A DNA stretch of 64,000 bases, taken from NCBI GenBank assembly GCA_020632445.1, contig JACKFN010000003.1, forward strand, positions 81,118 to 145,117. Direction: 5' to 3'. A program made the translations under genes and the position numbers. This DNA is from Candidatus Nomurabacteria bacterium (GTDB taxonomy: Bacteria > Patescibacteriota > Patescibacteriia > Magasanikbacterales > UBA922). The notes beneath the pieces were generated by a model. That model was not told the DNA's origin, searched no databases, and worked only from the letters and a program-made list of their open reading frames with translations. Below are positions 34,501 to 37,980 of this stretch, in pieces (the stretch's first letter is position 1; the number at the start of each line of letters is the position of its first letter).

Positions 34501-34584
34501 AAAAAATTTACCTTATTATAGCAAGTTTTCTATAAAACGAAAAGTCTTGAAATAAAAAAAACCACTGTTTGTGGAGTTGTGGCG

Positions 34585-34611
34585 GCCGACCTGTGGTAGG
34601 TACAGGTCGGC
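34585..34611 (-). terminator. GC-rich hairpin GCCGACCTGT-ggtaggt-ACAGGTCGGC immediately 3' of the island gene (T-run about 20 nt further on)
   Basis: Perfect 10-bp inverted repeat read directly; non-canonical spacing to the U-tract. Confidence 0.4.
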
Positions 34612-34648
34612 GCCGTTGGTGGGGTAGCTCGCCGTGACGAGTGGCGGA

Positions 34649-37600
34649 CTAGTTGTTGGGGTGGGTGCGGACGATGCGGAAGCCGGTCCAGCGCTCCGGG
34701 TTGTTCGGGGTGCTTCCGGTGCGTCTGGCGAACCGGTAGTTGAGGACCCCGTTGGCCGGGTTGCGACCGAAGTCGGCCGCCGATCCACCCCGCGTGGTAC
34801 GGCGGCCGTTCGCCTCCAGCTCCTCGAAGAGCGGATCCACGACCGCCTGGTTGCCCAGGCTGCCGTTGTAGGCGTCGTAGGTCCACTCCCAGACGTTGCC
34901 GATCATGTCGTACAGCCCGTTGCCGTTGGGCAGCTTGCCACCGACCGACTGGGGCTGCTCGAGGGGCGCGTTGTCGGCGAACCAACCGATGTCCGTGAAG
35001 TTTTCACCGTACGTCGCACTCGGGTGGTTGGCCCGGGCCGCGTACTCCCACTCCGCGTCGGTCGGCAGCCGCCAGCCAGTGCAGTCGAGGCCCATGAAGT
35101 TGGGCTCGACCTGGTCGGCAGCATCGACCAAGTTGTAGGCCTCGGCGTCCGCGTTGAGGTAGCACACCGGCAGCCCGTGGTCGACCGACAGCGTGGTCAC
35201 GTAAGCGATCGCCGCGAACCAGGTCGCGGTTTCGACCGGGCAGTCCGGGCAGTCTCCCACCCGGGTGCTCGGATCGAATCCCATCAGGTCCGTGAACTCG
35301 GCCTGGGTGACCGTGTACTTCCCGATCATGAAGTCTCGGGTCAGGGTCACCTCGTGACGATCTTCGTTCTGCGCTCGGCCGACCTCGTTCGCCGGGGACC
35401 CCATCTGGAACTGTCCCGCCCGGATGAGGACGTAGTCCTCGGGCGAGCAGTTGATGAAGCCATCGTCGACCTCGCCGTTGCAGTCGTCGTCGATGCCGTT
35501 GCACAGCTCCTCGCTCGGCTGGCCGGGCTCGGCATCGCACGCCGCGCCCTGCTCACCGCAGACCCGAAGGCCTTCGCGCTGGCACGCTCCGACGCCCACG
35601 CTGCAGGCCTCGCCGAGCCCGGGGATCCCCTCGTCCGTGTCGCCGTCACAGTCGTTGTCGACACCGTCGCACATCTCGTCCATGGGGCCCATGCTCTCGC
35701 AGGACTCCACGCCGTCCATGCACATGGCGTAGCCGTGGGCGCACTGGCCCTGCTCGCCGGTGTCGCACTGCCCGGGCAGCTCGTAGTCGGGATCCTCGAG
35801 ATCGGTCTGGCCGTCACAGTCGTTGTCCAGGCCGTCGCACACCTCCAGGGAGGGCTCGACGTTCTGGACGCAGACCATGCCGTCCTCGCCCTGGCACTCG
35901 AGGGTGCCGGCCGCGCAGACCCCAGTGTTGCCGGTGTCGCACGGACCGCCGCCGAGATCCTCGTCGACACGACCGTTGCAGTCGTTGTCGACGCCGTCGC
36001 AGATCTCGGGGCCGGAGGGGACGCAGTTGCTCTCGCAGCCGTCCGCGGGGTTGCCGTTGAGATCGGCGAACCCCTGCTGGCACACGAATGCGCACTGCGC
36101 CGCCGCGCACACGGGCACGGCGTTGGGGGGGGAGGGGCAGCGGACGTTGCATCCGCCGCAGTTGGTCGGGTCGCTGCTCAGGTCGAAGTCCTCGTCGGTG
36201 TCGCCGTCGCAGTCATCGTCGCGGTCGTTGCACAGCTCGGCCGCCGGCTGGCAGACGTCCGGGCACTCCGGACAGATCCACCCGTCCTCGCCGGTGCACT
36301 CGGCCTCCATCAGGATGGGAGCCTCGGCGTTGCCGCACATGCACACCAGGTTGTCGGGCTGGGCGAGCTCCTCGTCCGTGTCGCCGTCACAGTCGTTGTC
36401 GATGCCGTCGCACAGCTCGTCCTCGGGCGAACCCTGGACCGCGGTGCACACGACCTCGCGACCGTCCTGGCTGCACTGACGCACGCCGCTCGCGCGACAG
36501 GCGCCGACACCGACGCTGCACGCCTGGCCGAGCTGGTTGTACCCCTCGTCGATGCGCCCGTCGCAGTTGTCGTCGCGACCGTTGCACATCTCCTGGGGCA
36601 CCGCGCCGCACTCGCCGCAGGCGTTGAGCAGGCCCTCGTCGACCTGCCCGTCGCAGTCGTCGTCGATGCCGTTGCAGATCTCCGGGGATGGCTCGGACGG
36701 CTCGCACAGGATCCTCGAGCCGTTGCCGTTGCGGCAGACCGTGCTGCCGCGCCGACACTGGCCACGCGCCTCGAGCGCCTGGCAGGGCTCGGACTCGAAC
36801 TCTCGGGGATCGCAGAGGCAGCCCTCGTCCACGTTCCCGTTGCAGTTGTTGTCCACCTGGTCGCCGCACATCTCCCCGTCCTCGTGGCCCGGGGTCGGCG
36901 TGCACTCGTACTCACAGCCGCTGTTCGGCTGTCCGTCCAGGTCGATGAAGCCCTCCTCGCACTCGGCGATCACGCACAGGCCCGCCTCGCACGCCGCCAC
37001 CGCACCATCCAGCTCGCACTGGTGGCCGCAGCGACCGCAGTTGAGCGGGTCGAACTGCAGGTCGAAGTCCTCGTCGATCTCGCCGTCGCAGTCGTTGTCC
37101 AGGCCGTCGCACACCTCCGCGGAGGGTTCGACGACCATGGCGCAGACCATGTCGACACCATCGCACTCGAGGATGCCGGCCGTGCAGACGCCCTGCTCCC
37201 CGGTCTCGCACTCGTTTCCGACCGTGGGGTCCTCCTCGCAGGAGGGCATCCCCATGTCGTCGGTCTCGCCGCCATCGGTCATCTCGCCACCGTCCGTGGT
37301 GGCGTCGATCTGGCCGGCGTCCTCCATGCCGGCGTCGATCATCTCGCCGCCGTCGGGCGTCATCGCATCGCGTCGCCCGGCGTCGGGCATGAAGCCCTCG
37401 TCCGGCATGTCACCGCCGTCGGGCAGCATCACCTGGGCGTCCTCACCGGGGAGGACGCCGTCCACGCCGGGCCCCGCGTCCCGGTTCGGGACGCAGTAGT
37501 TGAGCTCGCACCAGTAACCGCCGACGCAGTCGGCGTTGGACGAGCAGTTCTCGTCCACGCTCGGATCACAGGCTCCGAGCAGGCCCACCATCAGGACGGC

Positions 37601-37669
37601 CGCAGCCATCATCTTCCGACCCATGGGTTTCCTCCCCCTGGTTCGATGTGTCAGTATCAGGCACCCCAC
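34649..37669 (-). CDS. High-GC secreted lipoprotein: lipobox signal, about 10 Cys-rich C-x-D-x-D-C-D-G-x-x-D-E repeats, C-terminal FGE-sulfatase-type (SUMF1/DUF323) domain
   Basis: MGRKMMAAAVLMVGLLGAC lipobox; repeated CDGLDNDCDGEIDE, CNGIDDDCDGQVDE and similar; C-terminus has GWRLPTDAEWEYAARA and GNVWEWTYD FGE-domain hallmarks; GGAGG RBS 7 nt upstream; about 70% GC. Confidence 0.7.
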   Translation of the reverse strand: MGCLILTHRTRGRKPMGRKMMAAAVLMVGLLGACDPSVDENCSSNADCVGGYWCELNYCVPNRDAGPGVDGVLPGEDAQVMLPDGGDMPDEGFMPDAGRRDAMTPDGGEMIDAGMEDAGQIDATTDGGEMTDGGETDDMGMPSCEEDPTVGNECETGEQGVCTAGILECDGVDMVCAMVVEPSAEVCDGLDNDCDGEIDEDFDLQFDPLNCGRCGHQCELDGAVAACEAGLCVIAECEEGFIDLDGQPNSGCEYECTPTPGHEDGEMCGDQVDNNCNGNVDEGCLCDPREFESEPCQALEARGQCRRGSTVCRNGNGSRILCEPSEPSPEICNGIDDDCDGQVDEGLLNACGECGAVPQEMCNGRDDNCDGRIDEGYNQLGQACSVGVGACRASGVRQCSQDGREVVCTAVQGSPEDELCDGIDNDCDGDTDEELAQPDNLVCMCGNAEAPILMEAECTGEDGWICPECPDVCQPAAELCNDRDDDCDGDTDEDFDLSSDPTNCGGCNVRCPSPPNAVPVCAAAQCAFVCQQGFADLNGNPADGCESNCVPSGPEICDGVDNDCNGRVDEDLGGGPCDTGNTGVCAAGTLECQGEDGMVCVQNVEPSLEVCDGLDNDCDGQTDLEDPDYELPGQCDTGEQGQCAHGYAMCMDGVESCESMGPMDEMCDGVDNDCDGDTDEGIPGLGEACSVGVGACQREGLRVCGEQGAACDAEPGQPSEELCNGIDDDCNGEVDDGFINCSPEDYVLIRAGQFQMGSPANEVGRAQNEDRHEVTLTRDFMIGKYTVTQAEFTDLMGFDPSTRVGDCPDCPVETATWFAAIAYVTTLSVDHGLPVCYLNADAEAYNLVDAADQVEPNFMGLDCTGWRLPTDAEWEYAARANHPSATYGENFTDIGWFADNAPLEQPQSVGGKLPNGNGLYDMIGNVWEWTYDAYNGSLGNQAVVDPLFEELEANGRRTTRGGSAADFGRNPANGVLNYRFARRTGSTPNNPERWTGFRIVRTHPNN

Positions 37670-37943
37670 CCGATCTGAACACCATCAACACTTCAAACTT
37701 CATCCCCGACACTCAAAGTGGTGCGTGTAGGGTGATTTCGTATCTGACCTGATTGCCAGAGTAAACGAAACACGCTTGGGGTCCCAGCCCTGCAACCGCC
37801 CTTTTCGCTATGAGCGGAAGGAGCTGGGCAGGCACCAACTGACATTTGATCAGCTTATGCCTGCCTGCAGGGTGGAAAAGTTCAAAGAATTTTGAAATTT
37901 TTTGTAAAGATCCTGTATTGCACGTATTGTACAATAACAGGTA

Positions 37944-37972
37944 ATTATAGCAAAAAATGACGCTTTTGTCAA
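37944..37972 (-). promoter_or_regulatory. Perfect sigma70-consensus promoter on the minus strand (TTGACA-17 bp-TATAAT) reading into the high-GC island
   Basis: Reverse complement of 37967-37972 is TTGACA and of 37944-37949 is TATAAT, with a 17-nt spacer. Confidence 0.5.
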
Positions 37973-37980
37973 GTCCTAAA

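Follow-up and report, generated by a model that had tools for sequence, protein, structure and literature searches.

Under the model of Lawrence and Ochman, horizontally acquired genes reportedly ameliorate to the composition of their host, and composition is routinely used as a clock of horizontal gene transfer (HGT). The closest precedent for the locus described here is vls of Borrelia, a surface-lipoprotein locus with a G+C content of ~49% versus ~28.6% for the genome across species, whose authors infer strong selection maintaining high G+C, tied to recombination (PMC11499132). The present locus is an island of GC-rich DNA, holding one gene for a predicted lipoprotein of 991 amino acids, in a stretch of 64,000 nucleotides of a genome labelled Candidatus Nomurabacteria bacterium (GCA_020632445.1, contig JACKFN010000003.1, positions 81,118 to 145,117; this whole stretch is called the window, and positions are counted from its first nucleotide). 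As in vls, the G+C content of the island gene is held above that of the genome across lineages, but vls has a GC skew of ~0.52, G runs and silent cassettes, whereas the skew of the island gene is small and no cassette-like copies were found in the 64 kb; unlike vls, the island gene is of an evidently foreign type. It shares a foreign composition and sharp borders with classical acquired genes, but differs from them in having no mobility hallmarks, in being present in all close relatives, and in being un-ameliorated after saturation of its silent sites. The surprise is the persistence of a donor-like composition, not the acquisition.

The gene occupies the same site in several lineages of the Candidate Phyla Radiation (CPR, Patescibacteria), and has held a GC content at third codon positions (GC3) near 0.9, whereas GC3 in the genomes around it is 0.25-0.44. 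The explanation regarded as probable is an old acquisition of a Myxococcota-type gene that was inherited at its site, its GC-richness being maintained by a locus-specific force. The gene would have been gained once from a Myxococcota-like high-GC source before at least three, and probably four, CPR lineages diverged, domesticated behind a host-type promoter and leader, and then inherited together with its neighbours, while a force acting at the locus would filter out A/T-ending codons and so hold GC3 near 0.9. If this is true, the locus is a natural test bed for biased gene conversion versus nucleic-acid-level selection in shaping bacterial GC content, for which the gene, its flanks and several lineages are directly comparable in existing metagenome time series. 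It also warns that an atypical composition need not mean a recent transfer or a contaminant. In the literature searched, neither this gene nor the maintenance of GC-rich genes in CPR genomes was found to be reported, and a keyword search of the text of a 2026 preprint about HGT and cysteine-rich repeats gave no stated link to the repeat family, GC content or Patescibacteria.

Outside the island the GC content of the window is 0.416 ± 0.033 (standard deviation; maximum 0.53; 400-nt windows across 64 kb), compared with 0.63-0.71 in 15 consecutive 400-nt windows of the island (34601-37401; 0.684 overall), and no second GC-rich stretch resembling it was found at that resolution. In 300-nt windows, GC climbs at the left border from ~0.43 through 0.57 to 0.67-0.72 between 34500 and 34650, and at the right border it drops through 0.58, 0.47 and 0.38 over ~37500-37950. 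Thus the abrupt jump at about 34562 described in an earlier annotation, made from the sequence alone (the first-pass annotation), is genuine and is the sole such stretch in the window, at ~0.68 versus 0.416. The fall-back over 37690-37870 that the annotation described proved to be no decaying junction but a conserved, structured 5' leader. The comparison of codon usage between island and flanks that it had proposed gives a GC3 of 0.918 for the island gene versus 0.35-0.44 for the flanking genes.

Within the minus-strand gene, GC at the first, second and third codon positions is 0.67, 0.48 and 0.92, and the high GC3 is uniform across the signal peptide, linker, repeats and C-terminal domain of the formylglycine-generating enzyme (FGE) fold. 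The GC-rich tract spans the 3' untranslated region (UTR) and part of the leader as well as the codons. Glycine, alanine, arginine and proline make up 0.31 of the island protein versus 0.22 in the comparison, and lysine 0.3% versus 6%, but amino-acid composition is dismissed as the cause of the GC excess, which is carried by GC3 and not only by the first two positions. Homogenisation of intragenic repeats alone is likewise dismissed, the non-repeated FGE-fold domain and the linker having an equal GC3. Nor do proteins of this family call for GC-rich codons, since MopE genes of further low-GC genomes resemble their hosts in GC3 (0.12 for the 1416-aa protein L099, genome GC 0.30; 0.53 for L048, of another low-GC genome). 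GC skew of the plus strand over the gene runs from +0.06 to -0.18, at most ~0.18 in size, and therefore skew on the coding strand is small. Every direct repeat found is intragenic, none flanking the island, and there are no mobility genes at its borders, the nearest recombinase and tRNA lying ~18 kb away.

The island comprises one transcription unit on the minus strand, in which a promoter, a leader, the lipoprotein gene and 3' hairpins follow one another. Its features are as follows.

37981-38000, minus strand: palindromic terminator of the upstream glycosyltransferase gene, AAGGGCCTTGCAAGGCCCTT with a T run after it, closing the host unit next to the island (inverted self-match; kept in L003).
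37944-37972, minus strand: promoter, TTGACA-17-TATAAT with a TG extension, 12 of 12 consensus positions matched (promoter scan; kept in L003 and L133).
37925-37937, minus strand: palindrome TTATTGTACAATA at the predicted transcription start (kept in three lineages by alignment).
37625-37937, minus strand: 5' leader of ~310 nt, GC 0.54, with multiple helices (homologous in L003 and L133).
37631-37638, minus strand: Shine-Dalgarno sequence GGGGGAGG, 6 nt 5' of the ATG (sequence).
34649-37624, minus strand: coding sequence of the lipoprotein, 991 aa, GC 0.689, GC3 0.918 (open reading frame, Pfam, codon statistics, NCBI match).
34554-34648, minus strand: GC-rich 3' UTR, GC 0.655 (sequence, RNA fold).
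34634-37678, plus strand: antisense open reading frame (ORF) of 1014 aa, an artefact (GC1 0.911 and GC3 0.671 mirror the sense gene).

Orthologous loci were found via the neighbouring genes and a homologue: L003 is a Crystal Geyser Magasanikbacteria genome; L133 is a third lineage, represented by a 160-codon fragment of the gene, and probably the same organism as L134 (two runs of one series). The L003 protein (885 aa, coordinates 10055-12712) is 50% identical to that of the window and colinear with it over residues 20-745 (649 bits), with nine motifs at matching positions and 75 of 81 cysteines conserved. GC3 is 0.846 in L003 and 0.906 over the 160 codons of L133, with flanks of 0.25-0.44, and both of these loci have the GC step, from 0.30-0.43 to 0.68-0.73. 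Upstream, the three lineages are homologous from the glycosyltransferase terminator onward, through the promoter, the TTATTGTACAATA palindrome, the leader and the Shine-Dalgarno sequence. Immediately upstream of the wzx-type flippase gene, a fourth lineage (L136, with a UGDH protein 70% identical to that of the window; located in contigs of ENA, JGI and Logan) has an orthologue of 625 aa. The lipobox, cysteine knot and linker are shared, a single MopE motif occurs together with an EGF-like module and the FGE fold, and GC3 of this gene is 0.47 versus 0.19-0.21 in its neighbours. The gene is missing at the locus in two relatives, L139 and L220 (UGDH 68-69% identical).

Divergence of the flanking proteins is as great as that of the island protein: the window and L003 are 57% identical in the family 4 glycosyltransferase (GT4), 82% in UGDH and 33% in the wzx flippase; the GT4 protein is 59% identical to that of L133, and UGDH and an epimerase are 83% and 89% identical to those of L134. 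The gene is no recent arrival, since it stands at one site in several lineages whose silent sites are close to saturation. A recent one-off insertion from a high-GC donor, not yet ameliorated, was the interpretation of the first-pass annotation, and it would account for the abrupt borders and for the donor-like codon usage and amino-acid composition; however, the orthologues at the locus in other lineages are only 43-51% identical, their silent sites are near saturation, the gene is present in each of the three closest relatives of the locus, and the hallmarks of integration are wanting, so that this explanation is highly improbable. The clean and presumably recent insertion that it pictured is contradicted by the shared site, promoter and leader in at least three CPR lineages with silent-site-saturated flanks, and further by the half-ameliorated copy beside wzx in L136 and by borders that have neither a mobility gene nor direct repeats. 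The survey of related genomes that it had called for found the gene in L003, L133 and L136, and found it absent only from the more distant loci L139 and L220.

Silent sites of the flanks are saturated, the number of synonymous substitutions per site (dS, NG86 method) being 2-3 or undefined for host genes. The corresponding dS of the island gene (0.58-0.77) was rejected as a clock, the Jukes-Cantor correction being invalid because third positions are in effect two-state, G or C; it was replaced by third-base identity relative to the expectation from codon usage, together with the matrix of four-fold substitutions. The residual silent-site ancestry (phi), defined as the excess of third-base identity at conserved four-fold codons over the expectation from each gene's codon usage, is -0.05 to 0.14 for the host genes and 0.16 for the island gene (confidence interval 0.06-0.27). 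The silent sites of the island gene have been largely replaced since the lineages split. Its 209 conserved four-fold sites are 52% identical, with 27% C↔G exchanges and 19% exchanges between G or C and A or T (S↔W), the latter amounting to 39-45% in host genes.

An old gene undergoing slow neutral amelioration, with no maintaining force, would be expected to pass through values such as the GC3 of 0.85 in L003 and 0.47 in L136, which lie below the 0.92 of the window as if on a decay path, and the saturation estimates have wide confidence limits. A model of neutral drift from a GC-rich ancestor to the four-fold composition of the host, however, generates at most 8-11% C↔G exchanges, and at the observed identity it predicts a four-fold-site GC of ~0.74-0.77, in no case above 0.77, with S↔W of 0.33-0.36. 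The 27% C↔G and 19% S↔W observed lie beyond this model, and neutral amelioration is therefore rejected in this form; in addition, host genes became saturated over an equal interval. As a general explanation it is very unlikely.

Thus, silent sites have turned over and yet A/T-ending codons have been filtered out, and therefore a locus-specific force is invoked to keep GC3 high. If composition reflected a mutation-bias equilibrium, the scaled bias (natural logarithm of the odds ratio) would be ~2.8 for the window gene, 2.6 for L003, 2.9 for L133 and 1.3 for L136, and a GC3 near 0.9 would need a population-scaled bias of ~2.5-3 at almost every silent site. Foremost among the guesses as to the force are GC-biased gene conversion, acting on a surface-antigen gene prone to recombination, and selection at the level of RNA or DNA; a bacterial effect of biased gene conversion has been proposed (PMC4450053).

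Several points weigh against an old acquisition with maintained composition. The C↔G-rich, S↔W-poor pattern is exactly that of divergence inside GC-rich genomes. For codon selection, a bias of ~3 on each silent site is large, and to our knowledge there is no precedent for bacterial GC-biased gene conversion this strong at a single gene. MopE proteins can use host-like codons, as L099 does, and therefore no protein-level need for GC-rich codons is evident. The known set consists of three high-GC lineages and one intermediate, one of the three being a fragment of 160 codons, and the intermediate L136 is evidence that amelioration is able to proceed. In this assembly the right junction is uncrossed by any independent contig, the nearest (L002) starting at 37837. 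Finally, NCBI labels the genome Nomurabacteria, yet the closest relatives of its UGDH protein are labelled Magasanikbacteria; the latter belong to the Parcubacteria group of Patescibacteria, and the Nomurabacteria label falls within Patescibacteria as well.

The foreign character of the gene shows in its relatives outside the CPR. The Myxococcota proteins annotated as 'MopE-related' or as 'SUMF1/EgtB/PvdO family' have the same order of domains (CxGxDNDCDG-type repeats, PF11617, and then a C-terminal FGE fold, PF03781) and are similarly acidic and lysine-poor with GC-rich codons, but their genes, 30-38% identical, match the GC content of their own genomes, whereas the island gene exceeds that of its genome by 0.27. 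Unlike them, the island product is a predicted lipoprotein with a CPR-specific N-terminal cysteine knot, and its gene stands behind a host-type promoter and leader in a conserved CPR glycan locus. Relatives were collected from a search of 5.8 billion proteins, GTDB species genomes (among the matches listed), JGI contigs and IMG/VR, and belong mostly to Myxococcota or Bradymonadia. The GTDB matches listed were taken up by generic MopE patterns and include neither the genome of the window nor the Magasanikbacteria genome. The best outside the CPR, from Myxococcota and Bradymonadia, are at most ~37-38% identical, with gene GC equal to genome GC; the ~210 relatives fetched reach at most 225 bits and ~37% identity, versus 649 bits between CPR copies; and no close donor-like relative was found in the 5.8 billion proteins, the JGI contigs, IMG/VR or the GTDB matches listed. 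Of the proposal of horizontal gain from a high-GC donor, what survives is the type of gene, which is typical of high-GC Myxococcota and Bradymonadia, while the gain was neither recent nor private to this genome. Similarly, the database search suggested for identifying the donor lineage pointed to Myxococcota and Bradymonadia as the nearest kin beyond the CPR, but at no more than ~37% identity.

Recurrent or independent import would dispense with a maintaining force. The copies would have diverged within GC-rich donors, such as a Myxococcota-like partner or host, and would have reached the CPR genomes by recent gain or by repeated overwriting, through homologous replacement of the segment from leader to terminator, so that the GC-richness would always be fresh. 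This would explain the C↔G-dominated silent divergence with no special force; the gene family is plentiful in Myxococcota and occurs also on viral contigs, and the GC-rich tract extends beyond the codons to the 3' UTR and part of the leader. Nevertheless, the gene is found at one site, where, in three lineages, the GT4 terminator runs on without a break into a homologous AT-rich promoter, palindrome and leader; the best potential donor is ~37% identical versus 50% between CPR copies; viral contigs lack the leader motif; L136 exhibits a long residence during which composition has partly decayed; and the borders have no mobility genes or direct repeats. Import of this kind is accordingly judged unlikely. 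In a related and slightly less likely scheme, the gene would be continually re-templated from a GC-rich partner, namely the host of an episymbiotic CPR bacterium, probably Myxococcota-like, via DNA uptake and homologous replacement. If that were so, the composition and sequence of the gene would be a molecular record of the partner organism of each CPR lineage, and would reflect an ongoing host-to-symbiont mimicry of a surface receptor.

Viral contigs commonly encode MopE-type repeat proteins (IMG/VR, L140-L219; 163 relatives at 30-37% identity), which may be receptor-binding proteins. A phage origin of the island gene is unsupported, as no viral MopE protein exceeds ~37% identity and the leader motif does not occur on viral contigs. 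Another GC-rich stretch with MopE proteins was noticed in Candidatus Falkowbacteria (L005 2479-14044, JABHMO010000043.1): it is 11.6 kb long, holds multiple genes including two for MopE-repeat proteins of 514 and 1472 aa, and has GC 0.49-0.57 and GC3 0.44-0.69 between flanks of GC 0.31-0.37.

A chimeric misassembly, or a high-GC contaminant in a low-GC contig, might be suspected because short-read contigs often break in or beside the gene. The first-pass annotation had thought a chimera the less likely option, and this view is upheld: an independent assembler reproduced the left junction, in a Logan contig (L001, SRR12358676) that is 100% identical to window positions 33051-34909; the same architecture occurs in four independent projects or samples, on contigs of up to 506 kb; and the right junction is supported because the conserved promoter and leader bridge it in other lineages. 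The L003-type arrangement is found on a 385-kb contig of NCBI assembly GCA_002787355.1 and on contigs of 11.8 kb and 506 kb in two JGI assemblies of that population, all mutually 100% identical, and the L003 protein cluster is present on at least nine contigs, while the single contig L133 (Logan SRR29965070) runs from GT4 via the promoter and leader into the GC-rich start of the gene. An artefact of assembly is exceedingly improbable. On the right side, contig L002 (SRR12358676) corresponds to window positions 37837-41821 with 0.3% difference, which reflects either two strains in the sample or derivation of the window from a different assembly. Exact-protein look-ups of the 1006-aa and 991-aa products returned no contig on record.

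Contigs that stop in or beside the gene include L001, L002, L133, L134, L137, L138 and a contig of JGI 3300072015, and in L001 and L133 it was the antisense strand that the Logan gene caller picked. In public protein sets, such genes are therefore probably under-assembled and mis-called; the locus serves as a warning that short-read assembly systematically breaks them and that they are assigned to the wrong strand. As a second gene, the full-length antisense ORF was discarded, since its codon-position GC is a mirror image of that of the sense gene and it is not intact in L003, where the orthologous region has antisense stretches of only 604, 515 and 331 aa. The antisense frames had been set aside as high-GC artefacts from the start, correctly so.

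On the sense strand, the single coherent gene with its own ribosome-binding site that had been described is confirmed by the minus-strand ORF, its Pfam domains and the GGGGGAGG sequence ahead of the ATG. Its length required revision: the open frame (34649-37669) does encode 1006 aa from a GTG, but translation probably begins at the ATG at 37624, with a product of 991 aa that is a 100% match to NCBI MCB9798597.1. L133 has an equal layout at the start of the gene, GGGGAGGAAACC before ATG. The promoter is a perfect sigma-70 type, AT-rich and host-like in character, and the TTATTGTACAATA palindrome beside it could be an operator or a 5' hairpin. At the other end, the 3' UTR contains three hairpins (34651-34625, 34614-34581 and 34574-34562) and then a U8 run (34561-34554), which is likely to be a terminator. 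The fold of the 3' region (-37.7 kcal/mol, z = -5.92 versus shuffles) includes a GC-rich hairpin with a 13-bp stem, so that the 3' hairpin reported earlier is real, and is followed by a small hairpin and the U8 run.

The leader is represented by three copies (window 37625-37937, minus strand; L003 9775-10054; L133 1388-1669). Across these three sequences 19 of 76 predicted pairs have compensatory changes, compared with 6.9 ± 2.0 in shuffles and 2-5 with slid partners; the count exceeds those of all 500 shuffles and all slid controls. No Rfam family matched the leader at the gathering score, and a permissive scan gave only chance-level matches (E ≥ 2). It is therefore a candidate for a new cis-regulatory RNA of CPR bacteria, and it probably controls expression of the lipoprotein gene.

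The predicted protein is divided as follows, from its N-terminus.

37565-37624, minus strand: signal peptide with lipobox, MGRKMMAAAVLMVGLLGAC (translation; four-way alignment).
37235-37564, minus strand: acidic low-complexity linker rich in Asp, Gly, Pro, Met and Glu, with 'PDA/DAG' repeats (residues ~21-130).
35450-37234, minus strand: stalk of MopE-type Cys/Asp repeats (residues ~131-725; Pfam PF11617).
34652-35449, minus strand: C-terminal domain of the FGE-sulfatase fold, which is C-type-lectin-like (Pfam PF03781).

By pattern inspection the lipobox cysteine is invariant in four of four orthologues (LLGGC, MVGC and LSGC, with LLGAC ending the motif of the window), and the four-cysteine knot directly after it is likewise kept in all four. 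The DNA of the linker contains repeat families D7, D10 and D15. In the stalk (PF11617, 130.2 bits versus a Pfam cut-off of 27), the motif C[DN]x(1-2)D[DN][DN]C[DN] occurs in nine copies in the protein, and a 53-nt core in ten copies in the DNA (repeat families D1-D4). The stalk is predicted to be disulfide-stabilised and probably also Ca2+-stabilised. The C-terminal domain matches PF03781 with 125 bits (E = 5.7e-36; residues 744-1001 of the 1006-aa ORF, positions 3-255 of 255 in the profile), and its C-terminal tract is rich in asparagine. The mature protein is strongly acidic, and lysine accounts for 3 of 991 residues in the window protein and for 0 of 885 in L003, versus 6% in host proteins, a near-absence more extreme than GC-rich coding alone would suggest.

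The domain shares its family with FGE (SUMF1; PDB 6S07 and 1Y1E), but the two catalytic cysteines of the enzyme are lacking. In alignment with 6S07, the segment of the two catalytic cysteines reads GGSFLCHESYCNRYR in the enzyme and GGSAADFGRNPANGVLNYR in the island protein, and the GGS..C....C..YR segment reads GGSFLCHESYCNRYRVAART in 6S07 and GGSAADFGRNPANGVLNYRFARRT in the island protein, where it has no cysteine. Identity as a formylglycine-generating enzyme is excluded by the replacement of both copper-binding catalytic cysteines, and the protein is therefore not filed as an FGE; no sulfatase domain was found in 45 of the larger ORFs of the window, scanned with Pfam. NCBIfam gave only matches below the cut-off, to enzymes and to FGE-fold lipoproteins (PorK/GldK and GldJ). 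The latter, from the secretion and gliding machinery of Bacteroidota, are lipoproteins in which the FGE fold is structural and non-catalytic, with weak NCBIfam and PDB matches to the island protein (60 bits versus a cut-off of 350), but they differ in lineage and architecture, and the island has no context of a type IX secretion system.

The top sequence match of the C-terminal domain among solved structures is TvpA of Treponema denticola (PDB 2Y3C, E = 7.5e-16), a surface lipoprotein whose FGE fold is non-enzymatic and ligand-binding, as the head of the island protein may be; TvpA has no MopE stalk. TvpA is the variable protein of a diversity-generating retroelement (DGR), and DGRs are common in CPR genomes. 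The C-type lectin domains that they target tolerate massive variation (PMC11661182). The FGE-fold domain of the island protein might similarly be a DGR variable region, which would be an addition to the old, maintained acquisition rather than an alternative account of the composition, and the Asn-rich C-terminal tract agrees with it. However, no template repeat was found in the 64 kb (blastn with word size 9, 34501-38000 versus the window, giving only intragenic matches), and no reverse transcriptase in 45 of the larger ORFs of the window by Pfam or in the gene lists of L003 and L136, and the idea has a slim chance of being right.

From its domain anatomy, the product would be a membrane-anchored lipoprotein with a stalk and a lectin-like head, a putative surface binding protein or adhesin, the FGE-fold domain being the putative ligand-binding head. 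TraA of Myxococcus xanthus has a cysteine-rich repeat stalk and a lectin-like recognition domain. It is a polymorphic cell-surface recognition receptor (PMC12248028, PMC13184517). Compared by description, the likeness between the two is one of design logic, the topology of the island protein being reversed (N-terminal anchor and C-terminal head) and its head having the FGE fold versus PA14 in TraA. The locus thus points to a conserved, probably highly expressed, candidate surface adhesin and an unclassified leader RNA in the CPR, a group whose host-attachment molecules are largely unknown.

The surroundings of the island are those of a CPR chromosome (Patescibacteria, Magasanikbacteria-like), not of a mobile element: the window contains ordinary chromosomal genes for PBP2, a Mur ligase, MraW, MraY, a ClpB-like ATPase and RecR. 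The neighbours are as first described, a wzx flippase on the left and, on the right, a GT4 gene with its own terminator.

33262-34500, minus strand: wzx-type flippase (Polysacc_synt), the downstream gene, GC 0.425, GC3 0.40 (Pfam).
38040-39170, minus strand: GT4 glycosyltransferase, the upstream gene, GC 0.423, GC3 0.44 (Pfam).

The wzx gene is a neighbour also in L003 and L136. Around the island, a glycan locus extends from 17401 to ~50300, and encodes a Wzy-like polymerase or ligase, seven GT4 and one family 2 (GT2) glycosyltransferases, a deacetylase, methyltransferases, sulfotransferases, enzymes for the supply of 3'-phosphoadenosine-5'-phosphosulfate (CysQ, CysD and CysNC), the wzx flippase, a TviB-like UDP-GlcNAc dehydrogenase, an epimerase, an initiating transferase and an S8 peptidase. 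The product of the locus would be a sulfated, Vi-like polysaccharide. One sulfotransferase (32409-33052, plus strand) is split over two overlapping ORFs of 113 aa each, of which only the second matches Sulfotransfer_1, and may represent a frameshift or a pseudogene.

Elsewhere in the window, 9263-16977 is a probable integrated element, with ORFs of no recognised kind, a Toprim/primase-like protein (12249-14438) and a large serine recombinase (15314-16918) whose gene overlaps at its 3' end a tRNA-Trp (16904-16977, minus strand). A type III restriction-modification pair occupies 4910-8987 on the minus strand (Res helicase-nuclease, 762 aa; N6/N4 DNA methylase, 598 aa). A gene of host-like GC content on the plus strand (43299-45047), which is kept beside an S8 peptidase in related loci, encodes a 582-aa protein of no Pfam family with a weak likeness to the thrombospondin-type-3 cohesion and gliding proteins CglD and MtsD of Myxococcus, and its counterpart in L134 has a faint TSP3_bac match.

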